DNA of 64,000 nt from an uncultured delta proteobacterium (lineage in GTDB: Bacteria > Desulfobacterota > Binatia > UBA9968), in assembly GCA_963745835.1 (NCBI GenBank), contig CAVUZH010000003.1:1216001-1280000 (forward strand), written 5' to 3'. Below the pieces are notes generated by a model that worked only from the letters and a program-made list of their open reading frames with translations, made no database searches and was not told where the DNA came from. Position 1 is the first letter of the stretch, and every line of letters starts with the position of its first letter. Positions 37,991 to 60,813 of the stretch are shown piece after piece. A program made the position numbers and the translations under genes.

Positions 37991-38174
37991 GGAGCACATT
38001 TCAGAATGAGAATAGGGAAGAGCGCACGCGCCGGTGGAGCCTCGATCGAGGAACGAGATTGTCACTACCGAGGTCGCAAGCAGCAATGAACGATCAAAGC
38101 GCGATTGCGTAAAACTAGAGTGGAAACAAATTGGAAAGATCAGCAGACTGCAGCGTGTAAGTCATTGAGAAAGA

Positions 38175-38220
38175 TGGCGCGCCCAGGGTGATTCGAACAC
38201 CCAACCCCCAGATTCGTAGT
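38175..38220 (-). repeat. Displaced tRNA-Arg(ACG) 3' half (att copy 2)
   Basis: Minus strand ACTACGAATCTGGGGGTTGGGTGTTCGAATCACCCTGGGCGCGCCA; begins at the anticodon loop. Confidence 0.9.
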
Positions 38221-38673: not shown

Positions 38674-39310
38674 ATGCCATGTGATGCCCAGTGTTGGTCT
38701 GCAATAGGTAGCCTCGGATCCGCGATTGCGGCGAGTGGTACTGTGATTGTTGCCTATGTTCAACTATCAAAACTAGCAAAACAGCTGCACCTCCAAAGTG
38801 AGCAGACGAAGTTGGTTGAGAGGCAGATCGGGGAAACGCACGAGTGGAATCGGCGGAAGGCCACTCAGTAGACCCTGCATGATATTGCAACCGGTACGGC
38901 GCAGGGGCTTCTTCGAAGAATGAGGCTCGAATTTGGCTGTGATGTGGCGGCCGAGCCATCACCGGACTACAGCAAAGCATTGGCATCTTTTACAGCGGAT
39001 AAACAGCGGAAGTTTCTAGCCACTTTGCTGACACTAATCAACATATTCGAAACGGTCGCTGTGGGCGTTCGGCATGGAATTATCGACGAGGATATAGCAT
39101 GACTACCTCGGCAAAATTATGCCTGCTTATTATTTCTTCACTCACCCATTGATCGAAGAACGACGAAAGCTCTTAAAATTTGAGCGGGGTAGCGGGAGCC
39201 TTGAATATTGCGCTGAGAAGTGGCGAATCCGGCTATTAATAGAGGAGCAAAAGAGCGAAGAGCGCCGCAAGAACAAATCACTTGTCAAACCAAAGCCGCC
39301 ACTCGAGTAA
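38674..39310 (+). pseudogene. DUF4760-like protein, in-frame TAG plus a frameshift
   Basis: N-terminal TM, HEWNRRKATQ*, LINIFETVAVGVRHGIIDEDIA, then shifted DYLGKIMPAYY..IEERR. Confidence 0.65.
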
Positions 39311-39898: not shown

Positions 39899-41911
39899 AT
39901 GAAAGGAGCTGCTATGAAACCGAAAACCGAACTGCAACCATCAACCAAACTCCGAAGAGCAGTTGTGGGAGGTTCCCTAAATTCTTTTCCTACTGCACTG
40001 CTGGTTCCCGTACGGAAAGTTCTGGCCGCCGTGTTGCCTCGCTTTCTAAAAGACAGCATGCGAAATCCAAAAGTCCGTTCAGCCATTGTTCTGGCTGCCG
40101 ATGATGCGCTGGTGAAGCAGTATCCGGTAGCGCGACTTGTGCGGGCGGATTTGCGCAGGCGGATTTTGCGGGAACGATTGGACGAGTTGCTGGATAACTG
40201 GCTGATGCCGACCCCGCCTGCCGCTCCTCCGGCGCGTGGCGCTCGTGCTGGCGCCAGGGCGGGGCGTGCCGTTCCGCGCCCGAAGGACGACGTAGCGGCG
40301 ATGGGTGATGGGTTCGAGGGTTTCATGATTAAATTGCGCGCTTCCGGAAAAATCGCCACAGCGCGGCGCGTGGTCAAAAAAGCGCTCGCCGGTTCTTGGT
40401 CAGTAAAGGATTTCGCGCGAGGTTCGAGACAATTTGAAGTTGCCAGCAACAAAGTTTCTATGTCGGCTGCCGAGGCTTGGGAAGCGACTTACCGTCTGCG
40501 CGCACAACCCGGAGTTGGGTGGGCCGAGCCCTGTTTCACAGTTCCATTGGAAGCGCCCGCTCGGCTTCGAGCCAAGGGGCGTCGCGCATCCGGCGGCGGT
40601 GGAGGGCCTGCGCCTGCCAATCCGCAATGGAGCGTGAATATGGTCAAGACCCGCGAAGCCTGGGCTTTCTCAACGCAAACAGGAAACCCAGCGCAAGGCG
40701 CCGGCATTGTCCTCGGCCATCCCGACACCGGCTGCACCACGCACTCAGAGGTGCTTTCGCCGCGGCTGCTCAAACAATTAGGCTATGATTTTTGGGACTC
40801 CGACTCTGATCCAACCGATCCAATGGATAGTGGAGTTGGCTGCACAATTTCGGCGGACTTCCTTTGCTTCCCGGGCCACGGCACCGGCACATCGAGCGTC
40901 ATCTTCAGCGACGACAATGCGGGAGCTGCGAAATTCGTCGTTGGCATCGCGCCCGCAGCGAAGCTGATTCCGTTTCGGGTCGCACCGACCGTGGTACTTT
41001 GGAGCATGAAGCGTCTCGCCGCGGCTATCCGGCGCGCAACGGATAGTGGCTGCCACGTGATTTCCATCAGCATGGGCGGCCCTGGCGCGAACACGTTGCA
41101 TGAAGCCGTGCAATATGCCGCTGAGCGCGGTGTAATTGTATGCTGTGCCGTCGGCAATCAGTGGCCATGGGTGGTCTGGCCGGCGGTTTACGACGAGTGC
41201 ATCGCTGTAGCAGCGTGCAACATCAACGAGAAACCCTGGTCAGGCTCAGCGTCCGGTGAAGCCGTGGACATCACCGCGCCTGGTGAAAATGTTTACCGCG
41301 CTTATTTCAACAAAAAACAGAAGGCCGATGTTGGTCCGGGTTCCGGCACCTCCTTCGCCGTTGCGACGACTGCGGGCGTGGCAGCGCTCTGGCTGGCACA
41401 TCACGGCATCGATCGATTGAAGTCAAACTCGCGTGTGTCCGCGCCAAACATCCCCCCCTTGTTCTTCTCCATTCTGACGAAGTATGGCTACAACAAGCCG
41501 GCCGGTTGGAACACAAGCAGTTACGGCCCTGGCATTATCGATGCCGAAAAAATTTTGAAAGCTCCGCTCCCTACGGCGCAGCCAGCGTCCGCACGTCGTC
41601 GGGTGAAGGTACTTTCACCATCCGAAGGTAATCTGGGGGAGTTCGCCAATCTGTTTCCGGAACTGTCACCCGCGGAATTGCGCAACCGTCTGGCCAGCGC
41701 GCTCGGCGCCACACACTCAACGCTCCCGGCGCGACTACGCGAGGTCGGCGACGAACTGCTCTTTCATCTTGCGGTTAACACGGAGGAGCGCGAGCGCTTT
41801 GCCGGCTTCAGTCCGGCCGGGCGGAAGGTCGGTGCGAAAGCCAGCTTGCGCGCCAGTACGACGGCCCTTCGCGCCGCGGCATCACCCACGCTCGCAAAAT
41901 ATTTGAATTAA
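39899..41911 (+). CDS. S8 (subtilisin-family) serine peptidase A, no signal peptide
   Basis: Triad GHPDTG / PGHGTGT / SGTSFA, oxyanion CAVGN; extra N- and C-terminal helical regions (start may be 39914). Confidence 0.9.
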   Translation: MKGAAMKPKTELQPSTKLRRAVVGGSLNSFPTALLVPVRKVLAAVLPRFLKDSMRNPKVRSAIVLAADDALVKQYPVARLVRADLRRRILRERLDELLDNWLMPTPPAAPPARGARAGARAGRAVPRPKDDVAAMGDGFEGFMIKLRASGKIATARRVVKKALAGSWSVKDFARGSRQFEVASNKVSMSAAEAWEATYRLRAQPGVGWAEPCFTVPLEAPARLRAKGRRASGGGGGPAPANPQWSVNMVKTREAWAFSTQTGNPAQGAGIVLGHPDTGCTTHSEVLSPRLLKQLGYDFWDSDSDPTDPMDSGVGCTISADFLCFPGHGTGTSSVIFSDDNAGAAKFVVGIAPAAKLIPFRVAPTVVLWSMKRLAAAIRRATDSGCHVISISMGGPGANTLHEAVQYAAERGVIVCCAVGNQWPWVVWPAVYDECIAVAACNINEKPWSGSASGEAVDITAPGENVYRAYFNKKQKADVGPGSGTSFAVATTAGVAALWLAHHGIDRLKSNSRVSAPNIPPLFFSILTKYGYNKPAGWNTSSYGPGIIDAEKILKAPLPTAQPASARRRVKVLSPSEGNLGEFANLFPELSPAELRNRLASALGATHSTLPARLREVGDELLFHLAVNTEERERFAGFSPAGRKVGAKASLRASTTALRAAASPTLAKYLN

Positions 41912-41941
41912 AAATCTATCCATGCTTCAGATAAATATCTC

Positions 41942-43484
41942 ATGAGCTCAATCGTCTCCGATCATTTCATTTTGCTCCCGCCGCGCGGAACCATCGTGGA
42001 GGGATTGCTCGGCACTCGTGCTCTCAAGTCATTTATGCTGCTCTCAACGATGCCCAGAAAGCTGACCGCGCAGTAGCGGTGAGAGCTGGAGCAGCACGGG
42101 CCGGCCTGTCAGGGACCGCACCAAAGATGCGTGTGCTAGACTCGCTGCACGAGAACGGGGCGAAACTCGTACAGATGCCACCCGAAGCCGCGGCTGCGCT
42201 CCGCGCCGAGCAGCCCGGCCTCAGGCTCGCCCCGCTCGTCCACTACCGGAAGGCCGACGCGCCTCGTCCTAAGATTCTCGAACAATTTCGCACGGCGGCG
42301 CGCACAACCGCCCGCGCAGCGCGTGGCCCTCAAGTCGGACGTCTGAAGCTGAAGATGCTCATCCAAGGCACTACCTTACCCGCTGTGGGCGCGGATGTTC
42401 TCGTCTTTACCAATTATGCGAACCGCGTGGGAGCGGAGGGTAAAAGCAACAAACGCGGTGAAGTCACCCTGGCTTTGGGCCCTGACCCCGTGCGTGTGCA
42501 AAAGCTTTTCATTTATCCGGCGAGCGGCTGTTGGAGTCTGCTCAAGCAGAATATCTCCCTGGCTTCTGGCCAGCAGTTCACTCTGCGCCCGCTCGATTTG
42601 TCCTTCACAGACGTGCTTCGCCATTTCCACGGCAATGCACCTCTCAACGTCGGCCAAGGTGTCAAAGTTGCCGTCGTGGACAGTGGAGTGAACCGGCATC
42701 ACGACGATCTGACGGTGGCAGGCGGACGCTGCACCGTGGCCGGAGAAATACTGCCGAGTACGGCGATGTCGGTGACAGCCACGGCACACATGTCGCCGGC
42801 ATCATCGCCGCGCGTGGCACCGCGCCGGACGGATTGCGAGGCCTTGCGCCCGCCGTGCTGCTCTACAGCTATCGCGTTTTCGGCCGAAACAGCGAAGACG
42901 CATCGTCTTTCGACATCCTAAAGGCGCTGGACGCCGCCCGCGCCGACAAATGCGATCTCATCAACTTGAGCCTGACCTACGGCCAGACGGATGAGGTTTT
43001 GCGCGCAGGTATCGAGAATGCTCGCGCTGCCGGAATTCTCGTCATTGCCGCGTCCGGCAACGATGGACGCCAGCCGGTAAGCTTTCCCGCGTCCGATGAA
43101 ATGGCAGTGGCCGTTTCCGCAACCGGCCGCAAAGGCACTTTCCCGGCCGATTCTACCTCGTTCCCGCATGGGAAAGTTCCATTCGGCAGGGACCGCAAAA
43201 ACTTCATCGGAGACTTTTCTAACATCGGCCCGGAGACGGATTTGACCGGACCGGGGGTTGATGTTCTCTCGACCGTGCCGGGCGGCTATGCTGCCATGAG
43301 CGGCACTTCTATGGCGTGCCCAGCGGTGACCGGCATGGCGGCGCGGATGCTCGCGAAGAACAAGCCCCTCCTCGGCCGGAAGCGCGATGCCGCGCGTTCC
43401 GAGGCCATTGCGCGACTGCTGCTGCGCTCGGCCCGCCCGCTGGGCTTCGGGCCAAAGTTTGAAGGGCGGGGTCTTGTGCGTTAG
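41942..43484 (+). CDS. S8 serine peptidase B, no signal peptide; frameshifts near 42040 and 42750 (probable errors)
   Basis: MSSIVSDHFILLPPRG start; triad VAVVDSG / SHGTHVAG / SGTSMA, AASGN; adding one A to the run near 42748 restores the frame. Confidence 0.85.
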
Positions 43485-43493
43485 AGTGGTGCT

Positions 43494-43718
43494 ATGAAAC
43501 GGTTTATCTTCCGCTTCCGTGGCAAAGGCGAAACATCGGAAGCCGATGTCGACCGCATCCGCTCGCAAAGCCGTGTGGTGGATGATTCCTCTCCCCGTAT
43601 GTTGCTGGTGGAAGTTCCGGAAAAAAAAGCCGCGAACTGGCCAGATCCCTCAAGGATTGGGCGGTAAGCGAGGAACGCCACCTGTCCCGTCCCAATCCCC
43701 GGCCCAAAACTCAAGTAA
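43494..43718 (+). CDS. Small stand-alone propeptide/I9-inhibitor-like protein (frameshifted tail)
   Basis: MKRFIFRFRGKGETSEADVDRIRSQSRVVDDSSPRMLLVEVPEKKAA then ELARSLKDWAVSEER..PRPK; 9 bp after peptidase B; absent from the ORF track. Confidence 0.6.
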
Positions 43719-44516
43719 GCGACGGCCGCAACAAACGTCACCTCGCCGGAGCCTGTGGAGTTACCCATTAGAAGGCAGGTTCAACTGGCAAGACCTCTCC
43801 CATAAGAATCGGTTGTGTTATTCCTCCCGGTAAATTTCGCGTGACCTTAGGCTATTACGCCATCGCGTGCCCGCGTACCATTCATGAACCGCTCAAGCCA
43901 GCTTCCCGGCACCGACGGATTCGCGGTGGGCTGGGATTCCGGTTGGGAGATCAGGAACCCAGCTACTTTTCTATGTTGCTGTCTTCAGCGCTGCTCCTTG
44001 AATGACGCGAGGGGTGCAAAATGAACCTGGCCCAACCAGAGGCTAATTCGGCGAAACACTTACAGCTTGTCAGGAATTTAGCAAAGGCCGCTGCAATGGT
44101 GCTTGAGAGCACAGGATTTGATAACCTGCGCTAAAAAAAGAATTGTAAAAGTAATACGTTATCCGCCGTGCCAGGTTGTGCCAAGTAAAACTTGCAAAGA
44201 ACTCGGGTTTACCTCGAACCGCGAAGAACTGCCGAAGAAATTGTATTCGTTCCGAGATACTCTGAGCCGTTAGGGTACGTAGCTCTTTGCCTGTTCCGTA
44301 AGGTATCCGGCATTTAAATCAAGGCCGATCTCCTGTGCATCTCTCTCCTGAGTGTTCATGAACAAAAAATTTATTATTTTTCGTCGACAGAGATGGCTAT
44401 GTGAGAGATTGCATTCATGCAGACTATCTAGAGAAGCGAACCGTCAAAACCAGCAGCAAGGGTGTCGCTAGCCGCCGATCAAGTCGGCCAACAACCATAA
44501 AAGCGGAGAACCGTCG

Positions 44517-45512: not shown

Positions 45513-45685
45513 AACGCCTCCTTCTACGTGAGCTTGGCCAATACATTGGAGTGCGGCTCGGTAGATACACTGCCTAGGATTTAGCATGTGCTGATATACC
45601 GCACGGTGTGCCCATCGCTTTGCTTGGATAGCCAACCGTGATTGTTTAAAAGCCGACGAGCAGAACAGGTGTCATGTGAAAACAC

Positions 45686-46269: not shown

Positions 46270-46375
46270 TCATTGAGTCGTCGGATTCAGAATGGGCTGA
46301 TATACCGCACGCTGTTCGAGCAATTTATCCTTGAACTCCGCATCGGTGATGACGCCTTTCTCGATCAGTAGATTG
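46270..46375 (-). pseudogene. Small helical protein remnant (LLIEKG..LNP family) copy 1
   Basis: LLIEKGVITDAEFKDKLLEQRAVYQPILNPTTQ*. Confidence 0.55.
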
Positions 46376-46758: not shown

Positions 46759-46925
46759 TTACTGCGTTATCGGATTCAGAATACGTTGATAGACGGCACG
46801 CTCCTCTAGTAGCTTCTGCTTGAACTCTGCGTCAGTGATGATGCCCTTCTCAATCAGTAGCTTCGTGAGGATGTCTATCTGGGCAAAATTTGCGAGCATA
46901 AGTTCTTGCAGCGATACGGTTTGCC
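46759..46925 (-). pseudogene. Small helical protein remnant copy 2
   Basis: TVSLQELMLANFAQIDILTKLLIEKGIITDAEFKQKLLEERAVYQRILNPITQ*. Confidence 0.6.
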
Positions 46926-47080
46926 TTCCACGATGCGCCGGGTGAATGCAGCAGCCTCTTTGCCGAAGTGCTCAACGGTTTATTGGGATGCTTCGTTTCC
47001 GGAGTATCAACACCGATGAGGCGCACACGCTCACCGTTCTCCATCACCAACGCCATCGATTACACGCTCCACAACACGGT
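46926..47080 (-). pseudogene. Thermonuclease (SNase-like) N-terminal fragment
   Basis: ERVIDG / NGERVRLIGVDTPETKHPNKP / GKEAAAFTRRIVEGK; truncated by junction to remnant copy 2. Confidence 0.7.
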
Positions 47081-49021: not shown

Positions 49022-49084
49022 GTGGAAACAAAAGTGGAAACAATTGGAGAGAAGGCTAGATTAGAGGCGCGTAAGTTGTTGATT
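49022..49084. promoter_or_regulatory. Integrase arm-type repeats plus IHF site
   Basis: GTGGAAACAA x2; minus strand AATCAACAACTTA (49072-49084) is an exact WATCAANNNNTTR match. Confidence 0.7.
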
Positions 49085-49088
49085 CCAT

Positions 49089-49133
49089 TGGCGCGCCCGG
49101 AGGGATTTGAACCCCCAACCCCCAGATTCGTAG
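49089..49133 (-). repeat. Displaced tRNA-Arg(ACG) 3' half (att copy 3)
   Basis: Minus strand CTACGAATCTGGGGGTTGGGGGTTCAAATCCCTCCGGGCGCGCCA. Confidence 0.92.
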
Positions 49134-49829: not shown

Positions 49830-50936
49830 TCACGACAGAATGCTTGCCGCCAACTCTTGCACGTCGTTCTTTTTGTCCGGCACAAAATGCGCATAGGACT
49901 TCAGGGTGATGACAGAATCCCGATGTCCGAGGAGATTGCTCACCTTCGGTATTGCCACGCCCCGGGAAAGAAGCAGTGAGGCAAACGTATGGCGCAGCTT
50001 ATGAAGCGTAAGCCGTTTAACCTCGGCTACCTCGATCGCGCTGTCCATGATCTGCATTGCGGCCTTACGGTGAAGCGGTTTCCCCTCTATCGTCGCGAAT
50101 ACCAAGTCGTGTTCACTGCGCGGGCATTTGAGCTTCCAAAGCTTTAGTTCATGCGCCAATTCTTGCGGTAGGTCGAGACTGCGCCGGCTGCTCTTTGATT
50201 TAGGCGCGCGAAGCTGCCGCCCGCCTTTTTCTTTGGACTCATCAACGAGGTTTAACCGGACGTGAATCTTATTCCCTTTGAAGTCGACGGCCGGCCAAGT
50301 CAAACCTAGAACCTCGCCGATCCGGAAGCCGGTTAGCGCTGGAACCATGACCAGGACCCGCTCGAGACTACCCGGCGCCGTCGCTCCAACTAGCTTTTGT
50401 AGTTCCTCTTCTGAATAGACCTGCTCCGGCCTTACCTCTTCATCTTCGTTTTCTTCGTTTGAGACCTTCAGCCGTTCGGCGAGCTCAGCAACGTTCGCCC
50501 TTCCCTGAATCGGCCCATAGCGCTGCGCCAGTTTGAAGATAGCCGTCAAAGTCGTGAGGGTCTTATTGGCGGTATTAACCGACGTCATTCTCGCCCACTC
50601 CGCCGCGGCCGACTCGACAGCTTCAACCCCGACCTGCTGAATTGGGAGATCCCCGAGCAGCGGCACAATGTATTTATCGATATGCGTGCGCCAGTTCTGA
50701 AGAGTTGAAAAGCGGTAAGTGCCGGCCGCCTTCTTCCGCGCATGCCACTTCTCAGCAATGTCTTTGACGGTATCTTTCGACGGTAGGATAAAATCGCCGC
50801 GGGAGACCTGCGCAATCGCCTCTTTATCGTAATCCGAGGCCCGCTTGTATGTCGGGAAGGTTTTCCGGATCCGCTTTCCGTTCTGATCGCGAAAATCAAC
50901 GACGTAAGTTCCGGCCGCAGTTTTGTTTATTGCCAT
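49830..50936 (-). CDS. int: Tyrosine recombinase / phage integrase
   Basis: Arm-binding N-terminus, TGFRIGE, PKS, LHKLRHTFAS, LGH, catalytic Y (KSYAH); GAGGAG RBS. Confidence 0.93.
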   Translation of the reverse strand: MAINKTAAGTYVVDFRDQNGKRIRKTFPTYKRASDYDKEAIAQVSRGDFILPSKDTVKDIAEKWHARKKAAGTYRFSTLQNWRTHIDKYIVPLLGDLPIQQVGVEAVESAAAEWARMTSVNTANKTLTTLTAIFKLAQRYGPIQGRANVAELAERLKVSNEENEDEEVRPEQVYSEEELQKLVGATAPGSLERVLVMVPALTGFRIGEVLGLTWPAVDFKGNKIHVRLNLVDESKEKGGRQLRAPKSKSSRRSLDLPQELAHELKLWKLKCPRSEHDLVFATIEGKPLHRKAAMQIMDSAIEVAEVKRLTLHKLRHTFASLLLSRGVAIPKVSNLLGHRDSVITLKSYAHFVPDKKNDVQELAASILS

Positions 50937-50978
50937 GGGTTCAATCTCCTCGCTTCTCATGCTCTTTACGCAACCGCG

Positions 50979-51170
50979 TTACTTGCCGCGGCCACCTTTG
51001 ATCAGTTTGAACTTTGAGCGTTGCGCCTGCACACGTATTCTTTCCAGCTCATCCCGAAGAAATAAAAGCTCTTCGATTGGTAACCGTGCCAGCTTTTCAT
51101 ATAGGGTTTTGCGGTCATAGCTAAAACCGGCGAGTTGATCCTGGTGCTTGAATTTTGTTAGATCATTCAC
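50979..51170 (-). CDS. Small hypothetical protein upstream of the integrase
   Basis: 63 aa, ends FKLIKGG, co-oriented with int. Confidence 0.5.
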   Translation of the reverse strand: MNDLTKFKHQDQLAGFSYDRKTLYEKLARLPIEELLFLRDELERIRVQAQRSKFKLIKGGRGK

Positions 51171-51521
51171 GAAAAAAACTGTTTGGAATACATCGATAGT
51201 TTGATAGGAGGTAATAAGAGGAAGTCAACCAGTGTCGGGCCATACTGCGACCAACAAAACCTCAAAGCCGAGATCGACAAGACACTCCATCGCGCCGAGG
51301 AGCTGTTGCAGAAGAGCGGGCGCCTGCTTGAGGAGTATCGAGAAACAGTAGAACATACCCGACGAATCATCGAGCAAAGCCTTAAGCTGATGGCCAAGCG
51401 GACCGGGGACCGAAGCTAATCCCACCGACCGCTTCGAATTAGCGTTCCAGCACAGCCTTGGCAGGGCCTTTCCCGATCCTTGACAGCTACATAGACTTTA
51501 TGGCAATTGCTTCCCCACAAC

Positions 51522-51731
51522 ATGGCGAACATCCAAGACCAGATAGCGGCCCTCAAAGCGCGTTTCGACGGATTACAGGGCTCACTCGAACAGCAGGCCA
51601 AATCGAGCGCAGAGCTGCGGAACGTACTGGCGAAACTGAATGAAAGTATCGATCTGCTCGTGGAGGCAGAAAAACAACTGGATTCCCTGCAGAAAGGCCG
51701 CCAGACCGAAATCCAGCGGATCCGTTCGTAA
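51522..51731 (+). CDS. Small coiled-coil protein
   Basis: MANIQDQIAALKARFDGLQGSLEQQ.. heptad pattern. Confidence 0.45.
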   Translation: MANIQDQIAALKARFDGLQGSLEQQAKSSAELRNVLAKLNESIDLLVEAEKQLDSLQKGRQTEIQRIRS

Positions 51732-51993
51732 ACTCCGGCCCGGGGTTAAACGCCAGCTTTCTTCCTCCTTATCACTTTCTTGTCTGCTTTTTCCCGATCG
51801 CATTTAGCCTGCAACTCGGCCCTCGGTAGGTGTTTGCTGTTCAACTATCTTCAAGTTTGAAGTTTTCTTTGCCATGGGCGTCCCCCCTTTTCCGCTGCGA
51901 CTGTTTCGCTGAGCTTCAGTCAACGGGAGATTGAAGAGCCACGGCAATGCATAGCACACGATTATCGCACTGACCTGACGTATGTCAAGTCCT

Positions 51994-52206
51994 TTAGTCT
52001 TGACGTTTGGACTTTGGTCCGCCCGGTCGTCTGGTCTTCAGATATTGCTGAACGGATGTCACAGTCACGAAAGTTACGCCGTCAATATCCACGGTCTTTA
52101 GACGGCCATTCGCTACCGCTTCCCAAGCCGCTTGACGCGAGATCTTCAGCTGCTTGGCTGCGCTGGCGACGGTGACTATCTTGTTCGTGTCAATTCTGGG
52201 AGTCAT
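51994..52206 (-). CDS. Xis-like helix-turn-helix protein
   Basis: VTVASAAKQLKISRQAAWEAVANGRLKTVDIDG winged-HTH pattern. Confidence 0.7.
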   Translation of the reverse strand: MTPRIDTNKIVTVASAAKQLKISRQAAWEAVANGRLKTVDIDGVTFVTVTSVQQYLKTRRPGGPKSKRQD

Positions 52207-52722
52207 ATGCGCTTTGGTATCATCCTTCCTCAAGCCCCAGCTGCGCGTCGATTTACGCAAACCCGCGCGGCCTGGTGTTTCCGATAACTGGCTCGTTTTT
52301 TAGATAACAAATTCGAATGACAGCGGCACCACTTGACGGACTCGTAGCCATTGTGGTATCGACCCGTCCCTCGCTGCGCAGCGAATAGCTTGCGCTAACC
52401 TTTGACAGCCCTCAAAGGCGCTGCGCCGGCGAGGCCCAGGAACTTTGGGCATGGAGAAAACATCATGATGGTACTGCTTGGTTACTTCCTCATCGCAGCT
52501 GTAGCCGCCGTTGCAGCTTCGGCCCTCATCGGTCTTTTTCTTACCAACTTATCATCGTTCACTTCAAAAATTCTGATCGACTATCCCGATGGGTAGGCTC
52601 CGTGACTTCTGGAACCAGAAAAGAGACACATACTAATCCTCGCCCTTGGCGCTTCGAGTGCTTTTCTCGTCACGAAGCTCAAGCTCGCCTGGCCAGTGTG
52701 TTGATACGCCGCCGATAAAAAC

Positions 52723-53550
52723 ATGCCCCCACCTGGTACTGGCGTCTTGTCGTTTGGGCTAGTGGCGATCCCGGTCCGCATCCATACCGCGACACATAGC
52801 GAGAACGTATCTTTCCACCTGCTGCACGAAAAATGCGGCTCGCGCGTGCGCAATCAGCACTATTGCCCAGTCTGTAACATCGTCGTTGAGCGTGCAGATC
52901 TTGTCCGCGGCTTCCAGCACGCCAAAGATCAGTACGTGCCGATCACCGAAGAGGAACTCGAAAGCCTCGAGGCCGAAGCCAACAACAGCATCGACTTAAA
53001 AGAGTTCATCCCGCTTGCTTCAGTCGATCCGGTCTATTTCGAGAACACTCACTATCTCGGCCCCGACAAAGGCGGAGAGAAGCCTTATCGCCTGCTTGCT
53101 GACGCAATGGCAAAGAGCGGCCGTGTCGCGATTGCCGAACTTGTAAGCCGCGGTAAAGAGCAGCTTGTACTGATCCGGCCATACCGCAAAGGTTTGGTGC
53201 TTCACACGATGTACTACGGTAATGAGGTTCGGGACTTCAAACAGGTGCCCAAAGGCGAGAACGTGAAGATTTCGGAAACGGAATTGGAGCTCGGCGTCGG
53301 TTTGATCGAGCGCCTTACATCGGAAGAGTTCAATCCGGAGAATTACAAAGACGAGTATCGCATCCGCGTGCTCGGCATGCTCGATGAAAAGAGCAAAGGT
53401 AAGGAAATCGTGATCGACAAAGCGCCGGCGCCGAAGCACGGCCAGGTGATCGACATCATGGAAGCGCTAAAGCGCAGCATGGAAAGAGTCCCGGCGAAGA
53501 AGAAACCCGCAACGTCCACGGCGGCAAAAAAGAAAAAGAAAGTTTCCTAG
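52723..53550 (+). CDS. ku: Ku DNA end-binding protein
   Basis: LSFGLVAIPV, CGSRV..CPVC, IDLKEFI, KPYRLL, YKDEYR, VIDIMEALKRS, Lys-rich tail. Confidence 0.93.
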   Translation: MPPPGTGVLSFGLVAIPVRIHTATHSENVSFHLLHEKCGSRVRNQHYCPVCNIVVERADLVRGFQHAKDQYVPITEEELESLEAEANNSIDLKEFIPLASVDPVYFENTHYLGPDKGGEKPYRLLADAMAKSGRVAIAELVSRGKEQLVLIRPYRKGLVLHTMYYGNEVRDFKQVPKGENVKISETELELGVGLIERLTSEEFNPENYKDEYRIRVLGMLDEKSKGKEIVIDKAPAPKHGQVIDIMEALKRSMERVPAKKKPATSTAAKKKKKVS

Positions 53551-53654
53551 TTTATCACCCACCTCACAGCGTCCAGCTCTTAGTCGCATTAACGCGACGT
53601 CGCACTGTGTCAAAAGTAACAGGCTTAAGACGTTTCGCAGCCTGACCATACCTT

Positions 53655-53900
53655 TTGTTAATAAAAACAGGCGATGGCATGTACGTTGCTGCCTTCGATC
53701 AAATGAGCAAAGAACGACTTTGCGACCATTGTGAGGGGATACTCACGAGCAAAGCTTATCGCGTGATCAGTGAGGATCCGGAAGGCGGCGGGATATTGCT
53801 CGACATGATTGTGTGTCGTCCGTGCAGCGACAAAGCGCAAGAACTTGGCTTACAAATTGACGAAATAGACTTTAACGACCGGTATCTAAAAAGGGGGTAG
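53655..53900 (+). CDS. Small zinc-ribbon protein
   Basis: CDHC and CRPC pairs; start uncertain. Confidence 0.55.
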   Translation: MLIKTGDGMYVAAFDQMSKERLCDHCEGILTSKAYRVISEDPEGGGILLDMIVCRPCSDKAQELGLQIDEIDFNDRYLKRG

Positions 53901-53956
53901 CTAACTTAACAAAGAAAAACAAACGCGCGCTTGTTCTAAGGACGGAGGGTAGCAAC

Positions 53957-54196
53957 GTGGCAATGTATCGCATCTGTGCCGTGTGCATTGCGTGTGGTGG
54001 TCTTCATACAATGGAAACCACAATTAGCTTACCCGTGGGACCTGTCAACAAACAAAGCATTGGGGAGGCGTATTCTAATAAAGATCCTCCTCTCCAAATA
54101 GCCGCGCTGAAGTACGTGCGAGTGCATTGCCCTAAGACCGGGCGACACTACGCACAGAGAGACGATAACAAAGTATTCCTCGTTCCGCTTACCTAG
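53957..54196 (+). CDS. Small zinc-binding protein
   Basis: GGAGG RBS; CIACGGLH and HCPKTG motifs. Confidence 0.6.
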   Translation: MAMYRICAVCIACGGLHTMETTISLPVGPVNKQSIGEAYSNKDPPLQIAALKYVRVHCPKTGRHYAQRDDNKVFLVPLT

Positions 54197-54502
54197 CATC
54201 ATTGACCGGGTTGACCTCCGGCTAGGCCGACCCGGCAGCCTGCAGAGGTCCTAAAATTCCAACCGTCTTTTGTCCACCCATTCTCGCGCCAGTTCCAATC
54301 CATGCGCTCGGCTTCCTTCATCGTCTTGAATATCTTGCCCTCGATTCGCGCGAGTTCGATGATTGAACCGGCTCGGGCGGGTTTGAAAACAGAGCCACGG
54401 GACTCGCATCCCTCCATGTATACGGAGTGGAGGAGCCGGAGATCTTGTAGCCTTTGTATTCGAGCATTGCAGTCTGTCCCGTTGCTGATAGCTACTGATG
54501 AT

Positions 54503-54592
54503 CATTGCTGTCGGATTCAGAATCCGCTGATAAACCGCACGCTCCTCCAGCAGTTTCTGCTTAAACTCCGCGTCCGTGGATGATGCCTTCAA
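54503..54592 (-). pseudogene. Small helical protein remnant copy 3
   Basis: DAEFKQKLLEERAVYQRILNPT, same peptide as copy 2 over about 21 residues. Confidence 0.55.
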
Positions 54593-54988
54593 CGTTCAAG
54601 CGATTGCAACGGGAGTCCGTGACAAAAAAGAGACCGCTGTACGCCTGCGCAGATTAGATTTGTTTCTATCCGATAGCTTAAGGGGGGCCAATTTGGCTAG
54701 AAGCGAAGGCCGCCCCAGTCTACCCCAGAGCGGCCCATGAGTGTTGACAGGTTTTACGCCGCTCTGCCGCCCTCACCGCGGATTTTAACGAGCTTACCTT
54801 TCGGTGTTTTCTCCGTCGGCTCATCCTTGAAACTCAGCACAGTCTGAAGATAATGGTGGCCAAGTTGGTCCTGGAGGATGTTGCGCCATAGATGTTCCTG
54901 CTGCTGTTCTTTTGGTTCTTGTTTCAAGCTCGCACGTCTCAGGGTTACTCTACTTATCCGCCTTCGAAACCTTGTCTTTGCGAAGTCA

Positions 54989-55318
54989 TCAAGCTTGTAC
55001 TAAGAATGCGCTCTTACTAATTGCCGTGCTAATTGCTTCTAGGTCTTCGTGAAATTTAATAGGGTCACCTAAGTCATTTTTCATAAGAGTAATGTAACCC
55101 TGAATAATGCTCATCAGGCTGGTGAAATCAGCCATCTCTTCCTGTATAGCGATTGAACTTTCAGTAAGACTCGACTGGTATGTCTGTTTCTGCAGATTCT
55201 CAGGCGAGTCAAAGTGACTTTGTGCAGCAATGAGGTCCGCTGTTATCTGCGAGGCGCGTGCTTCAAGGCGTAGGCTAATGTACTGCAACTCTTCTCGGAA
55301 TTTTTCTGCCTGAGTCAT
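54989..55318 (-). CDS. Small protein with a degenerate HisKA-like helix pair
   Basis: MADFTSLMSIIQGYITLM..LEAISTA resembles AHDFNNLL..I.GY without the His. Confidence 0.45.
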   Translation of the reverse strand: MTQAEKFREELQYISLRLEARASQITADLIAAQSHFDSPENLQKQTYQSSLTESSIAIQEEMADFTSLMSIIQGYITLMKNDLGDPIKFHEDLEAISTAISKSAFLVQA

Positions 55319-55750
55319 ATTCTACGGCATGCGCTTACTGGCACTGAATGTCTATACATAGCAATGCTTACTCTACGCTCGGATTTCTAGGCGTCTGTCT
55401 AATATTGAACATATTTCCTCTTGGGCAAGACGTATGCAGAAGTGGGAGGATCAAAAAAAAATGAAATCAAATAAAACCCATGTCCAAACGGCCGACTCGG
55501 AAAGCCTAGACGACATACAGACGGCTTTATTCATTAACCATATAGACGCCAGATCGGATGAGACCGGGACGGTGAAAAGCGTCCACTCGAAAAAGAGATA
55601 GACACGTGGGTGGACAAACAAAGATGACCGATGTTGATCACTATCGGGAACTAGGATTTGGAATATTTTGGGATCGCCGACCTATCTTCTTCTAATTTGA
55701 GCGAGTGGTAGATTAAAGACAAACGACGGCACTTTTATGGGGAGTAACAA

Positions 55751-56008
55751 ATGAACCCCAATCGCTTCAATCGATATGCCGTGAGCGAAACCGGCGCGGA
55801 TCACACTCTATTACCCGAAGTAGAACTTTGGACGGAAGTTATACTACAGGCAATGGATGACCTCCATGGAACTACAGCACATTTGGACCACCGCTCTGCT
55901 AGGGCATGGTTTGCTTCTGACCGTACTGAACTAGGCACCTTCGTTTGGGCTTGTCAGGCCATCAATGTGGATGCGAATTTCATTCGCTGCCGATTGGTAA
56001 AGACCTAG
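55751..56008 (+). CDS. Small helical hypothetical protein (phage-type)
   Basis: GGGGAG RBS; LWTEVILQAMDD..ARAWF..FVWACQAINVD..IR pattern. Confidence 0.6.
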   Translation: MNPNRFNRYAVSETGADHTLLPEVELWTEVILQAMDDLHGTTAHLDHRSARAWFASDRTELGTFVWACQAINVDANFIRCRLVKT

Positions 56009-56592
56009 ATGCGAATCCAGACGAGCTAGTACCACGCGACAAATCACTCCAGTCGGTTTTCAAAGTTTCAGATCAACCCACTTTTTCGCGAATACCAGGC
56101 CGGCCCGCTCTGGCTTGCTCAGCGTACCGTAAGGTTTCGATGCTTGAGGCGGCGATGATCTCGGGTGTCTTCTTACGTTTAGGCATCATGTGTCCGGTGA
56201 CTTCAAATACTCCCGAATTGGGTCGTTCTTGCAAAGAAAGATAGTTGTGATATTAACTCGCGGCATTTTTGGCGTGGACATCGGCCCACAACTCGATCGG
56301 AGAAGCAATGAAGCCATTCCTCGCGTACATCTCGGATGTCTTAAATAAATGCCAAACGTATCTCAGCGTGACAGCACAGCGATCGCCCCCGGAGGTGAGG
56401 TATCGGCAAGACATACTAATCATCTCCGCAGTAGTGCTAGTGATCTTAGCTCTTTTCTTGATCGGCGCATACGTCATCACTAGGTTTTAGGCCCAGCGTG
56501 CCTTCGCTGCATTTGCACCGGGAGATACTCACATGTTTAAGTTGCGCAGATTCTGTTGCGGACATAAGAAAGACACATTCCTTGCACGATTA

Positions 56593-56847
56593 ATGACGAT
56601 CCTTTTCGTCGCTGTTTGTCTCAGCGGTTGCAGTGACAAAGATTCACAAGGGTCTTTGGAAATTGATGTTATGGCGTGGAATGAAAAGGCAGACAAACTC
56701 AAAGCCAAAATAAAAAAGGCTGCTGCTGAGAATGATTCGGTTGCCCATCGGAACAACGAAGAAGAGGCTAAACGTCTCCAAGTTGAGCTAGGGGAATTAC
56801 TCGAACGGACTAGTGCATTAGAGGCAGAAAAAGAAGGACGGATCTGA
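56593..56847 (+). CDS. Small coiled-coil lipoprotein
   Basis: Lipobox LSGC, charged helical tail; start uncertain (ORF from 56533). Confidence 0.5.
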   Translation: MTILFVAVCLSGCSDKDSQGSLEIDVMAWNEKADKLKAKIKKAAAENDSVAHRNNEEEAKRLQVELGELLERTSALEAEKEGRI

Positions 56848-57426
56848 AGCTTTAAGCATCCAACGTTAGCGAGCATTGCCCGCGCTCAGCGGACGGACCG
56901 GTGTCTTGATGCCCTTGATCATCGATTGCCTGCTGATCGTCGTCATCAAAGATTCCCGCTAAGTGATCCTTAAATGTATGCGTCATGTTAGATTTGTTGT
57001 CTGATACATTTTTACTTACTGCCTGCATCTTCATTAGGTTTTAGTTTGCTTACTTGGTCAGTGTTTGCTTGCTGATAGCAGTTGTCAAAAACCTCTATTT
57101 CTCCTTGCAAAGCCACAACTTCGTGATAGGGCTTGGACACCACTTACAGCACCGGGGGATACTCAACCATGATCGCTCTGCGCGACTTCTCTTCGAAGTA
57201 CGGCAATGACCTATTGATAGTCTCATCTGTAGTTGCCGGATTAATGCTTTGTCTGCTTGTGCGAAAGACGACAAAATGGATTACAACAACGCTCGAAGCC
57301 ATCGAGGATAGCGATTAACCGCTCACTGACGAGCGATTCGATCTCAGCGGCCTCGCCTACTTCACCAGTCCGCAGCGCCGTCGGCTTTCGCTCCTGTCAT
57401 TGCTCTATTCACGATTGCGCCAAGGT

Positions 57427-57669
57427 TTAAAAACTTCTCCTTTGAAGAATCGCATTGAACTCCACGATCCCAACCTCGTCCACCATCGCCTTCGCTCGCC
57501 TGAGCACATACCGATCCATGCGACAACGACCGGAGCAAACCAGCTTAACCGGTGCGTGCTTGTTCTTGACGGCCATTGGAGCGTGACAAAACGGATTAGA
57601 GCATCGTTCAGGATACCCTTGGAACTCCGTTAACGCCTCACTGGCGAACGTTTGAGGATCAGCCATTGC
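57427..57669 (-). CDS. Small zinc-finger protein
   Basis: CSNPFC and CSGRCR motifs. Confidence 0.55.
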   Translation of the reverse strand, partial: AMADPQTFASEALTEFQGYPERCSNPFCHAPMAVKNKHAPVKLVCSGRCRMDRYVLRRAKAMVDEVGIVEFNAILQRRSF

Positions 57670-58020
57670 CATTCCTTTGCCCAACACGACTGCTTCTTCC
57701 TTTGCATGATCATCCGCAGCATCTGCCGTCGCCGGGGCTTATTAAGTTTGGTCCGCGAGACATTCCTGAGCTGCGAGATTCGCGTTGAAGAGACGAGCCT
57801 CCGCCACAAATTCAATTTTGAAATACGGCGTTCTTTCGAAGCACTTGCACCTTTAGCTTCTTTGCCTTGTGAGCCTTGTAGCCCAGTCCGGTCATTGTTC
57901 CCGCCGCTCAAGGCGCTACGTCCGGAATCCAAACTTTTCGATCGGCCAGCGGGACTGGCCTCAATCCCTCCGGGAGCTCCATACTCTAGTCTGCATCTAC
58001 AAAAATTCCGCAGGCGCCGT

Positions 58021-58728
58021 TCACTGCCAGTGCTCGCACGCAATGTATAAATCACCCGGAATCCAAAACTCGTAACGCTGCAGCGCGCTGTCCAAATCGA
58101 AATCAATCTTTTTTGCAATCTCGCGCGCACGTTCCCAGCACGGCACGCATTTTCCGCGCTCTCCCTGCTGAACGTACACATTGATGATAGAATCGTACTT
58201 TTTAAAGATTGCGTTTTCTTCCGAAAACAGAAGATCCAATCGTTCTAGGTAACTGTATTCATCCTCATAAGCATAACCGTCATACACTGAGGGCTTGCCG
58301 AAGTAAGTTTTTCCTTTTTCCCACTCCGGCAAGTTGGGATCTTCCGCGGCTGGAGGGCGATCATCAAAACAATCGGCTTCGTCGTCCTCGTCAAGGTCGC
58401 GGCCTACAACGCGGCGCAACTCCGGTGCATCCCACTTCCACCAAGCCCAAGGGCGCAGCCCGGGGCGGTAATGCGCATGCGCCGGTACAAGCTCATCTCG
58501 AACCGCTTCGTACAATTGTTTTTTTGTTTCTTTATCGCCACGCTCCTCGCAGAGCTGTGTAAAAAAGAAATGTCCGGTAACCAAACCTCGAAGTTCTGCC
58601 AAGCCGGCATTGGCTCTGAATTTATAGTCAACATTCCATGGTATGCCTTGTCGAATCAGGTCGTGCAGATCCGAAATAATCCGGTCATTGATTCGTTTGA
58701 CGCGGATCATCTGTTTGCGTACCGGCAT
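58021..58728 (-). CDS. Hypothetical protein co-transcribed with the small terminase
   Basis: GGAGG RBS inside terS, 2-bp gap; PGLRPWAWWKW motif, C-terminal Cys cluster. Confidence 0.7.
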   Translation of the reverse strand: MPVRKQMIRVKRINDRIISDLHDLIRQGIPWNVDYKFRANAGLAELRGLVTGHFFFTQLCEERGDKETKKQLYEAVRDELVPAHAHYRPGLRPWAWWKWDAPELRRVVGRDLDEDDEADCFDDRPPAAEDPNLPEWEKGKTYFGKPSVYDGYAYEDEYSYLERLDLLFSEENAIFKKYDSIINVYVQQGERGKCVPCWERAREIAKKIDFDLDSALQRYEFWIPGDLYIACEHWQ

Positions 58729-58730
58729 TT

Positions 58731-59063
58731 TTATCGTCTACCTCCATATCTCAGCGACGGCGGCCTTGGTTTATCTGGCTCCTCGCTTAGATTTAGTTCG
58801 CGAACAAGACGAGCAAATGCGATCCTCGAATCCTTTTCGACTACTGCTTCCGGCCGAATTTTCGTCTCGCCATACTTGTTTTCGAATGTCATCCCGTGCT
58901 TTTTGATGGCTTCACGTGCCTGCTGGCACCGATCCCACGCTTCGGCAGCCAGTTGGAAAAGTCTGACGTGATGCGACTCTAATTCGTAGTCGGAAAGCAC
59001 ACTTTCGAACCATTTCCGTGTCGTTGCGCGTAGGTGCTTAGGTGCTTTCTGGTTTGGGGTCAT
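58731..59063 (-). CDS. Phage terminase small subunit, P27 family
   Basis: APKHL..W..V, L..AAEAWDR..AREAIKKHG, KIRPEA, FARLVRELNL. Confidence 0.82.
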   Translation of the reverse strand: MTPNQKAPKHLRATTRKWFESVLSDYELESHHVRLFQLAAEAWDRCQQAREAIKKHGMTFENKYGETKIRPEAVVEKDSRIAFARLVRELNLSEEPDKPRPPSLRYGGRR

Positions 59064-59089
59064 CGTTTTTTATAGAAACGGGGTCGGTC

Positions 59090-59156
59090 CGCTTATAAAC
59101 GCGACTGCTGAGCGGTCCACACCGCTGATAATCGTGAACAATTGCACGGCCCCGGT
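59090..59156 (-). other. Putative cos packaging site
   Basis: Minus strand GGGGCCGTGCAA..GACCGCTCAGCAGTC (GAC-N9-GTC dyad) about 40 bp upstream of terS. Confidence 0.45.
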
Positions 59157-59486
59157 TTTCAGCCCGATTTGAATTCTTTGACTCGCTCCTCGCGACGCTT
59201 GCACTCTTTGCAAATCGGTTCGCGCTTGCATTTGCCACCGGCCACAATTCCAGATGCACGGAATGTGCGGCTTTCTGTTGTTTGGTTTGCCCATGCTAGT
59301 TACTCAGCCTCCAAAGGGCTCATGGCAAGATCTTTCAATTTCGGATAATGGCTTGCAACATCTTTGCAGTGAAAAACTAGTCATCCGCGGGGATGATTAC
59401 AGACGCCGCCAAGATCAAAATTGACAAATCCTAAACTTCCGGTTGTGTTTCCTTTATCGTGAAGATCCCTCGAGTATCTTCGGAAG

Positions 59487-59879
59487 TTACGATTTGCCTT
59501 TTTCGATTTCGCGCAATGCGAGCAGCACACGCTTCCCTTCAGCAACAACAGCTGATACAGTACAGCCTGACATGCCGAGATACTCTTTCTTGGCTTCGTG
59601 CGCGATCAAGCTCTTTCCGGCCACCTTCGATCGCCTCATCAAGAAATCGCTCTTGGCCTTCGAGAATTTCAGTTCTTCACGAAGGGATGATTTGGTATCG
59701 ATACTCTTAATAACCGCCGTCAAAAAAAGTCCACTCAATGCGCTGCGCGTATCTACTACTGGCGCCATGATCTTCATCGTAACGTTATTGATCTCATTTC
59801 TTACGCTTTGCTTCTCGGCCTGCAGGACTTGCATCTGCTGCTTGATCTCCGTTGTTGATATCGCCTGATTTGATTCCAT
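59487..59879 (-). CDS. Hypothetical coiled-coil protein
   Basis: AGGAG RBS, 130-aa ORF in the satellite operon. Confidence 0.6.
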   Translation of the reverse strand: MESNQAISTTEIKQQMQVLQAEKQSVRNEINNVTMKIMAPVVDTRSALSGLFLTAVIKSIDTKSSLREELKFSKAKSDFLMRRSKVAGKSLIAHEAKKEYLGMSGCTVSAVVAEGKRVLLALREIEKGKS

Positions 59880-59905
59880 TTACTTTCTCCTCTTCTTTTT
59901 TTGGG

Positions 59906-60427
59906 TTATCGATTTAGCAGGTGTGAAAAACTAACCGGCCGCGTTCTACATTCGCATCGAACACTGGCCAAGAATTTCTCCGTAAACTCTTTCTGGAATT
60001 TCTCCGCGGCTGGCTCGCTTTCGCCCTTGCCAAGCATCCCCATGAACCGACCCTCGATCATTTGCTGGCGATGTTTAGTTTCATGCGCCGTTACACATGC
60101 GACTTTACCGGCGCAGTCAGAGCCATTCATGCGGATAGCGATAGTATTAGAACTCGGTAACGCATACCCCAGCTTATTTGGTGATTTTCGAATCTCTTCG
60201 GCGGTCATCTCGCGGACCGCCGGTGGATCGATCCCCAACGTGAAGCTGGCAAGTTCGCAGGCTGCCCATGCGACTATATCCCGCCGAGGCGGATCGATCT
60301 CAATGAAGCTGCGAACCAAACGCGCGCGGCGTGCTATCTGGCTCTTATGCTCTTCCACTCGGATCAAACCCCGTTGGTAAATTTCTCGACGGTCAAAGTT
60401 CCGATCAGCTCGTTCGTAATAACTCAT
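59906..60427 (-). CDS. Zincin-like metallopeptidase (HExxH)
   Basis: LGYA..IAIR..VTAHETKHRQQ..E..AEKF; AGGAG RBS. Confidence 0.65.
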   Translation of the reverse strand: MSYYERADRNFDRREIYQRGLIRVEEHKSQIARRARLVRSFIEIDPPRRDIVAWAACELASFTLGIDPPAVREMTAEEIRKSPNKLGYALPSSNTIAIRMNGSDCAGKVACVTAHETKHRQQMIEGRFMGMLGKGESEPAAEKFQKEFTEKFLASVRCECRTRPVSFSHLLNR

Positions 60428-60737
60428 GTTGCTCCTAATTCTTTCCCGATTCCGCTTTTCGCCTGAATAAACGCTTCCAAGTCCGTCCGCGCGAATCGAA
60501 CGTAGTGACCCAACTTGATGCTTTTGATTTTTTGCTCCCGCGCCATCGATGCGAGCCAAGTGGGCGAACATTTAAAAATTGTGCTGCCTCTTCGGTGTCG
60601 AATAAGAGCTTTTCCGGCTTGCCATTCCGAGCAATTAGAGAGTTCTGAAGCTCTTCCCGCACAGCCTGACGCACAAGCTGCTTCAGTCCTTCAAACAATG
60701 GATTGACCGTATCCGGCGCCGGTAAAGTGGGTTTCAT
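60424..60737 (-). CDS. Excisionase-type HTH protein, frameshift near 60565
   Basis: AVREEL..LLFDTEEAAQFLNV then shifted TWLASMAREQKIKSIKLGHYVRFARTDLEAFI; corrected stop overlaps next ATG. Confidence 0.75.
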
Positions 60738-60813
60738 TTAATTGAACCGCCGAAGATGTTTAGTGCGTCCTGCACCTTCGCGTTACTATGGCCGTTCGGA
60801 TTCGTTGCTTTTC

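Follow-up and report, generated by a model that had tools for sequence, protein, structure and literature searches.

Why should a cytoplasmic subtilase be closely followed by the gene of a small protein that resembles its own propeptide? The question is raised by a three-gene locus, here called A-B-C, in a 64,000-nt stretch of contig CAVUZH010000003.1 from an uncultured delta proteobacterium. This whole stretch is termed the window, and all coordinates are positions within it. Genes A and B belong to the S8 (subtilase) family of peptidases, and gene C encodes a small stand-alone protein. An earlier note on this DNA had proposed that the three genes form an inhibitor-gated proteolytic cascade for defence, cell death or addiction. 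The analysis favours a narrower answer, with somewhat better than even confidence: C acts as a stand-alone mimic of the propeptide, binding mature B and blocking it, A is a separate gene, and the cassette has decayed in this genome. The pairing of a protease with an inhibitor is supported; the three-gene cascade and the defence role are not shown.

The pairing of B with C is most apparent outside the window. A metagenome scan returned 13 B-family loci, 11 of which include DNA 3′ of B, and in all 11 a C homologue of 72-92 amino acids (aa) lies directly after B, starting 10-40 nt downstream. The ten complete homologues each occupy one open frame, and the remaining copy, in locus L084, is cut by the end of its contig. 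A C profile, built from 100 C-family proteins, matches the C pieces of the window at positions 1-48 (E 3.6e-16) and 45-75 (E 1e-5), and it has no match in the other 149 loci (the A-family loci L002-L081 and the other 69 S8 loci). In viral contigs, the B alignment found catalytic-domain relatives only, and profiles of C and of the B N-terminal domain matched none of 80 viral S8 loci. The neighbours of B-C differ from locus to locus, with toxin-antitoxin genes nearby in two of the seven loci examined and a transposase in one. B-C is a self-contained, conserved two-gene module, widespread in soil and water metagenomes and separable from A.

Both halves of the window copy of B match Pfam Peptidase_S8 (C-terminal part 128.7 bits, 3.5e-37; cut-off 21.8). 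The catalytic residues Asp234, His268, and Ser444 (D234/H268/S444) and the oxyanion residue N361 are invariant in the B-family alignment and can be read in the pieces of the window gene. Alignments give B a propeptide-like N-terminal domain, a conserved middle segment of ~100 aa, and an S8 catalytic domain. The N-terminal domain, called a propeptide from its position and sequence pattern alone, is kept in all 18 aligned members of the family, and relatives of this piece are about 450-505 aa long with 38-52% identity. In a crude hydropathy scan, made with no signal-peptide predictor, a signal-like N-terminus was seen in none of the 18 B-family or 100 C-family sequences and in 1 of 27 from the A family, which agrees with the cytoplasmic location assumed in the earlier note. 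B also matches the PADLOC model “subtilase” over nearly its whole length (5.1e-52 for the B protein of locus L083). This model presumably goes with gasdermin-associated proteases; PADLOC assigns no system to it.

At E<=1e-3 the C family comprises 959 clusters, a number that falls to 381 at E<=1e-10; all of the best 150 are 66-143 aa in length. Its kinship with B is seen when alignments are compared: hhalign relates C to the B N-terminal domain at 87.5% (E 3.6e-6, 43 columns) with 100 rows and at 66% (E 5.5e-5) with 13 rows. The echo of the B prodomain in C, first noticed in the window copies, holds at the level of the families, and C appears from these alignments to be a paralogue of B's own N-terminal domain. 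The AlphaFold2 model of an intact C has an E-H-E-E-H-E order of strands and helices, with a predicted local distance difference test (pLDDT) score of 82.5, followed by a low-confidence tail. This tail is conserved, rich in proline and arginine, and PLPDPRP-like. In the VIA comparison, the model aligns with the prodomain of pro-subtilisin E over 62 residues (Z 6.7, root-mean-square deviation 2.6 Å). A search of the ESM Atlas by structure places three stand-alone clusters first, and rows 4-7 are N-terminal parts of S8 proteins with template modelling (TM) scores by query of 0.62-0.64; for three of these four clusters, Inhibitor_I9 is found in 69-95% of the members. C is predicted to have the I9 fold class yet fails the Pfam Inhibitor_I9 sequence test.

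How C may contact B was modelled with residues 200-501 of L083 B and the whole of L083 C. The complex has an interaction score (ipSAE) of 0.88 and the best control 0.08; at least 72% of contacts recur between runs, with a partner pLDDT of 74 or more. In calibration, 116 of 157 solved complexes and 2 of 215 mismatched pairs came up to the mark for such scores; these counts apply only roughly here, the alignments being our own. The interface on B consists of residues 235, 268, 271, 331-336, 360-361, and 440-445, which are at or next to D234, H268, N361, and S444. On the side of C it is formed by residues of the sheet and by tail residues 65-76. The nearly invariant glutamate of C, E65, makes the contacts with the lowest predicted error, and it resembles the helix-capping glutamate described for propeptides in the parts of PMC6993865 drawn on here. 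C is predicted to sit on the catalytic domain of B with its proline-rich tail at the catalytic residues. That C binds this domain as a propeptide mimic may be regarded as quite probable.

The most probable mechanism is as follows. B would be a subtilase of the cytoplasm, produced in zymogen form with a propeptide-like N-terminal domain of its own. The β-sheet of C would pack on two surface helices of the B catalytic domain, and the conserved proline-rich tail would enter the substrate cleft at the catalytic serine and histidine. Acting in trans, C would thereby keep mature B from working until C itself is taken away, as eukaryotic stand-alone I9 inhibitors do. The inhibition itself, a release signal, and the targets of B are presumed. 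Inhibition is slightly favoured over help in folding as the main role of C.

Stand-alone propeptide-like inhibitors are known from other organisms. The MEROPS I9 mimics include Pleurotus POIA1, yeast proteinase B inhibitor, Arabidopsis SPI-1, Toxoplasma MIC5, and Plasmodium SUB1-ProM (PMC6993865, in part), and the same excerpts describe inhibitors of this kind from Plasmodium (SUB1-ProM), Pleurotus, yeast, Arabidopsis, and Toxoplasma as encoded beside subtilase genes. SUB1-ProM is like C in that its gene adjoins subtilase genes, and it is selective for one of them (PMC6993865, in part). The I9 mimics place a sheet on the catalytic domain and a tail in the cleft, an arrangement that C would share, its docking being a prediction. 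They differ from C in that the named examples are eukaryotic; in the sections of PMC6993865 used here, the free-standing mimics controlling subtilases come exclusively from fungi, plants, and apicomplexan parasites. C is a cytoplasmic protein of bacteria; its family spans 959 clusters, and it forms a fixed module 10-40 nt after its protease and has a Pro/Arg-rich tail and no Pfam I9 match. A literature search, with supplements outside its scope, found no bacterial stand-alone propeptide mimic and no defence pair of this kind between an S8 protease and a small partner.

Other systems resemble B-C in part. B is like the pro-subtilisins with cis propeptides in that its N-terminal domain is related to C, whereas the conserved segment of ~100 aa between the N-terminal and catalytic domains sets it apart from them. 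The Bacillus protease ISP and its inhibitor IPI likewise combine a cytoplasmic subtilase with a dedicated protein inhibitor, but IPI has an Ig-like all-β fold (PMC3901451, in part) and is not a propeptide mimic. In the Pepco/Trypco, EACC1, and gasdermin modules, as in B-C, a protease adjoins a small partner of unassigned family whose terminal tail it addresses, in B-C by prediction (PMC12642450, in part). The partners in those modules are pore formers or enzymes that stay latent until they are cleaved, whereas C resembles the protease's own propeptide. A gasdermin system was considered and set aside, as no gasdermin gene was found by PADLOC and Pfam among the neighbouring ORFs in the window or by Pfam in seven other B-C loci. 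The same searches, of the window neighbours and of the genes beside B-C in the seven other loci, found no adjacent sensor or NTPase gene. IetAS resembles A-B-C as a small operon with a cytoplasmic S8 protease, but IetS models match B weakly and partially (3.4e-4 for window B; 3.8e-7 over ~140 residues for L083 B). Along with these weak matches, Pfam finds no ATPase among the open reading frames (ORFs) flanking the unit, and IetAS was rejected as well.

A belongs to another family. It matches Pfam Peptidase_S8 with 97.7 bits (9.7e-28; curated cut-off 21.8), and D276, H327, and S485 (Asp, His, and Ser in that order) are invariant in the A-family alignment, as is the oxyanion residue N420. Many relatives are full-length proteins of 640-660 aa with 40-50% identity; a genome-contig scan with A as a single protein found no relative, whereas the alignment-based scan did. 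The AlphaFold2 model of A (pLDDT 80) has a helical N-terminal domain at residues 16-102 followed by a disordered linker, a second disordered linker at 219-238, the S8 domain, and a helical C-terminal domain at 579-669. The top Foldseek match of this model is unautoprocessed pro-subtilisin E (E 4.7e-19), on which it also superposes best, with fervidolysin and pro-Tk-subtilisin as further likenesses among the pro-subtilisins with cis propeptides. ISP structures are among the sequence matches of A, for the catalytic domain only. A is unlike pro-subtilisins in its extra helical domain of ~90 residues at each end and in having no signal peptide by the hydropathy scan; an ESM Atlas search with the C-terminal helical domain gave no usable match. 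A is a pro-subtilisin-like cytoplasmic S8 protease with helical domains at both ends, from a large family separate from B. Much of the earlier description of the two proteases has held: A and B are S8 peptidases with full D/H/S triads, and the extra helical domains of A are present in the model.

The surroundings of A were studied in 80 loci (L002-L081) from species-representative genomes, in 77 of which the A gene was called. These loci have no single conserved neighbour gene. A scan of 97 proteins, counting same-strand genes within two positions whose peptidase domain scores E<=1e-5, places a peptidase beside A in 23 of the 77 loci, a figure that is overstated because related genomes share neighbours and the 23 loci are not independent events. 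The types are S8 in seven loci, Peptidase_C25-like in five, Trypsin_2 in four, CHAT and M4 in two each, and M10, S41, S46, and S66 in one locus each; CHAT locus L054 also has an S8 gene and is counted under S8. A-family proteases recur beside S8, caspase-fold, CHAT, and trypsin-like partners. Some of the neighbours look secreted or housekeeping, such as M4 with an FTP propeptide, S41, S46, and S66.

Several of these neighbourhoods have features of their own. An ORF of 83-97 aa often follows the Peptidase_C25-like neighbour of A. Six loci (L005, L041, L056, L057, L067, and L080) have a protein of a single cluster, 523-541 aa long, after the A homologue, with a weak Peptidase_C25 match in five of the six. 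In L041, L056, and L067 an ORF of 85-97 aa comes after this protein; it belongs to another cluster and matches nothing in Pfam or PADLOC, and L061 has a member of the latter cluster without the 523-541 aa protein. The C25-like protein and the 85-97 aa ORF are a second recurring arrangement of a protease plus a small ORF. Trypsin_2 proteins of ~400 aa lie directly after A homologues at L052:9182-10408, L065:2889-4082, and L078:9185-10372. The one in L052 matches the PADLOC model “nacht” over its whole length (6.6e-75), and the gene after that of L078 encodes a trypsin-AAA_22 protein matching the PADLOC model “trypsin-like”. CHAT proteases with an N-terminal Peptidase_M17_N-like domain are found at L034:4458-6098 and L054:10870-12540, each lying 3′ of both an A homologue and another S8 gene. 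Mutually alignable ORFs of 88-90 aa directly follow a second S8 gene at L024:11048-11311, L034:4172-4441, and L058:10852-11121. They looked propeptide-like by eye and were tried as relatives of C, but were rejected (hhalign 0.3%, no Pfam match).

In the window itself, B and C are broken (Table 1). B is readable only by shifting back one frame twice, near 42041/42042 and at GAAAT at ~42744-42750. Contigs of four public runs were mapped onto the A-B-C unit, X1 being possibly the source sample and X5 and X6 coming from other studies; only about half of runs X1, X5, and X8 was sampled. X1 has an extra G behind 42041 (depth 12.1 of 12.1), which restores the family reading frame of B. The window's version of this site is present in X5 (extra G in 0 of 12) and X6 (0 of 2.6). 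At the second break of B, no long contig spans the site in the four runs. Across the A8 break of C, a 678-nt X5 contig runs ungapped over 43217-43894. Since the window's first B break and its C break occur in contigs of other studies, they are not errors of this assembly. The frameshifts that the earlier note had wished to polish are two -1 breaks in B and one in C, and two of the three are seen elsewhere. Read through its break, C does not end at 43718, as had been stated, and continues to the stop codon listed in Table 1.

The contigs over B also hint at a further allele. Positions 42129-42676 are thinly covered or not covered at all in X1, X5, and X8, which proves nothing, since only about half of each of these runs was sampled. 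The long contigs of X1 and X5 both end at 42120 and 43217, and short contigs of the same two runs connect these positions via 17 other letters, the shorter side being 30 letters, which is the limit of trust. This suggests that the population likely also holds a B allele lacking 1,096 bp. In the RNA runs X19 and X20, only 5-6% of the sampled words are present. B, with two frameshifts, and C, with one, are concluded to be decaying pseudogenes in this lineage, which leaves A as the sole intact gene.

Table 1. Positions of the A-B-C genes, their frame breaks, and the bordering elements in the window
Feature	Position	Strand	Description
Gene A	39899..41911	+	Intact 670-aa cytoplasmic S8 protease, 670-codon open frame
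Gene B	41942..43484	+	B-family S8 protease; pseudogene spread over three frames
Gene C	43494..43771	+	Stand-alone propeptide-like small protein, split by frame break
C frame-0 part	43494-43631	+	Reading frame
C frame-2 part	43628-43768	+	Reading frame; stop at 43769-43771
B first frame break	42041..42042	+	One base short relative to the allele in run X1
B second frame break	42744..42750	+	GAAAT, just ahead of the His-motif region; from reading frames
C frame break, A8 homopolymer	43621..43628	+	From sequence
tRNA-fragment direct repeat, left copy	38153..38219	.	67 nt; reads, on the minus strand, as a 3′ tRNA gene fragment
tRNA-fragment direct repeat, right copy	49067..49133	.	79% identity to left copy
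Tyrosine integrase of right-hand element	49833..50960	-	Phage_integrase 4.3e-24; outside the A-B-C island

A number of observations weigh against C as an inhibitory propeptide mimic with a cellular role. The high score of the complex may partly reflect solved propeptide-subtilisin complexes already known to the predictor. The fold of C is the generic and common ferredoxin-like sandwich, and its VIA rows are tied within one Z unit among many ferredoxin-like domains. Foldseek with the C model gave no match in the PDB at E<=0.001, the PfSUB1 prodomain appearing only at rank 30 (E 0.09), and the C profile has no match among solved structures. Beyond three chance-level matches, none of 13 C members matches Inhibitor_I9 or any other Pfam family at E<=10. 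The B N-terminal domain is likewise without a Pfam I9 match. Why B should need a second propeptide-like unit in trans when it already has one can only be surmised. No function can be claimed for the broken B and C in this genome. As to a part in defence, PADLOC on the 45 ORFs of the island and right flank found no defence neighbour and only two marginal partial matches, so that the defence setting expected by the earlier note did not materialize; around B-C in other loci, no ties to defence were found and the neighbours vary.

Three of the alternatives to a dedicated inhibitor concern the partners of B. C could instead be a folding chaperone that acts in trans, is needed to produce active B, is degraded afterwards, and binds at the same place. 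The kinship seen by hhalign and the predicted complex would be equally expected of such a chaperone; subtilisin propeptides serve as chaperones and also as transient inhibitors (PMC6993865, in part), and the tight position 3′ of B suggests that C is made together with it. However, the N-terminal propeptide-like domain present in 18 of 18 B members would normally meet the need for folding, and the stand-alone mimics in the excerpts of PMC6993865 are inhibitors, which makes the chaperone an unlikely, though the most credible, of the alternatives. Alternatively, C could be a substrate of B, an effector that stays latent until B licenses it by cutting the tail, much as in Pepco/EACC1. Small protease-adjacent proteins that are turned toxic by one cut of a terminal tail are reported to be widespread in defence (PMC12642450, in part), and a tail predicted at the catalytic residues of B suits a substrate as well as an inhibitor; the near whole-length “subtilase” match of B (5.1e-52 for L083 B) points the same way. 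Set against this are the kinship of C to the B N-terminal domain, its compact and charged α/β fold, the absence of a hydrophobic 19-residue window >=1.6 from all 100 C-family members, and the lack of any Pfam family. A cut in the tail would, moreover, take off only ~10-20 variable residues, and a substrate role is decidedly improbable. A zymogen cascade, in which the upstream protease A removes C or the B propeptide and so fires B, would draw on the arrangement in the window, where A, B, and C are alike in G+C, lie only 30 and 9 bp apart, and are separated by no plus-strand terminator-like site. It would also draw on the 23 of 77 loci with a second peptidase beside A, and on the three loci (L024, L034, and L058) where A is followed by another S8 gene and then by an 88-90 aa ORF. 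Yet an A homologue is present in none of the six B-C loci with at least 1.2 kb of upstream sequence, and the 80 A-family loci contain no match to the B N-terminal domain or to C, either by profile scan or by tblastn with the two pieces of C and the N-terminal piece of B. The searches turned up no other A-B-C locus, the 88-90 aa ORFs show no relation to C (hhalign 0.3%), several peptidases beside A look secreted or housekeeping, and neighbours shared among related loci inflate the count of 23. The conserved three-gene system of the earlier note is not borne out by these loci, and a cascade of A, B, and C appears improbable.

The remaining alternative concerns the window copy, where the frame breaks might be artefacts or might be bypassed, for example by transcriptional or ribosomal slippage on A8, such that B and C are expressed whole. 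A -1 slip on the A8 run would restore the family reading frame of C, and the X1 allele with its extra base removes the first break of B. Nevertheless, the window's version is present in contigs of other studies, at the first B break in X5 and X6 and at the A8 run in X5 (678 nt). Neither break site of B is a homopolymer of note, all ten complete C homologues lie in a single open frame, and the neighbouring DUF4760 gene is likewise in pieces, so expression of intact B and C in this lineage is the least probable of the alternatives. The earlier note had held that real frameshifts with no intact homologous locus would count against its proposal. Two of the breaks are real, while intact B-C loci exist elsewhere and an intact A-B-C locus was not encountered. 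What stands after this comparison is a propeptide-like small ORF tied to an S8 protease, through its place after B in 11 of 11 loci, its kinship to the B N-terminal domain, and its predicted docking, with C as a free-standing mimic of the propeptide as the preferred explanation.

A, B, and C are co-oriented, and the tight unit described earlier is confirmed by its intergenic gaps (A-B 30 bp, B-C 9 bp). Its higher G+C content is confirmed as well, at 0.59-0.63 over 40000-43499 and 0.44-0.53 in the flanks. A scan for promoters and terminators gave no signal above chance, and no plus-strand terminator-like site was seen between the genes. The two 67-nt direct repeats are spaced 10914 bp apart and enclose a stretch of 10.9 kb that carries A-B-C. 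The short words ahead of both copies resemble each other, and ARAGORN and Rfam found no whole tRNA at either one. The left repeat is likely the left boundary of a remnant island. Besides A-B-C, the stretch between the repeats consists of short ORFs without a Pfam match and a DUF4760 gene in pieces. The latter lies just 5′ of A at 38674-39310 as three successive short plus-strand ORFs, the middle of which matches DUF4760 (1.4e-6), and looks like a single fragmented gene. The N-terminal piece of B was not found in the 60 related genomes searched (71-100% complete), a result that goes no further than these searches. The A-B-C locus is read as a laterally transferred cassette within an integrative island that has decayed and adjoins a second element.

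Other features of the region were recorded alongside. A repeated element of 33-101 nt occurs in four copies that are 63-88% alike, three in the island (45577-45609, 46283-46374, and 46772-46863) and one in the right-hand element (54513-54604). On the minus strand, a 68-aa ORF at 46853-47056 partially matches the PADLOC model SNc+LTD (1.4e-6) and resembles a broken piece of a staphylococcal-nuclease-type gene. The region 49833-62010, rightward of the right repeat copy, is a second integrated element with phage-like genes. It contains the tyrosine integrase, an HTH_17 protein, a Ku protein (52723-53550), a small terminase-like gene (58731-59063), and an AAA_25 protein (60814-62010).

What the module does for its hosts is a matter of graded likelihood. 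A service of B-C in addiction, abortive infection, or defence is conceivable but doubtful. Considerably more speculative, and improbable on present evidence, is the idea that B-C is a new and widespread protease/anti-protease module for addiction or abortive infection that fires upon loss or destruction of a labile C, with A-family proteases as the upstream triggers of a zymogen cascade. In this genome the copy decays, and only gene A could still function. Elsewhere, B-C pairs behave like a mobile two-gene cassette. If C inhibits B, then about a thousand sequence clusters would represent unannotated pairs of a bacterial cytoplasmic protease and its inhibitor. Such pairs could show how bacteria keep a broad-specificity protease safe in the cytoplasm, and they raise the question of the purpose for which the restrained protease is held.

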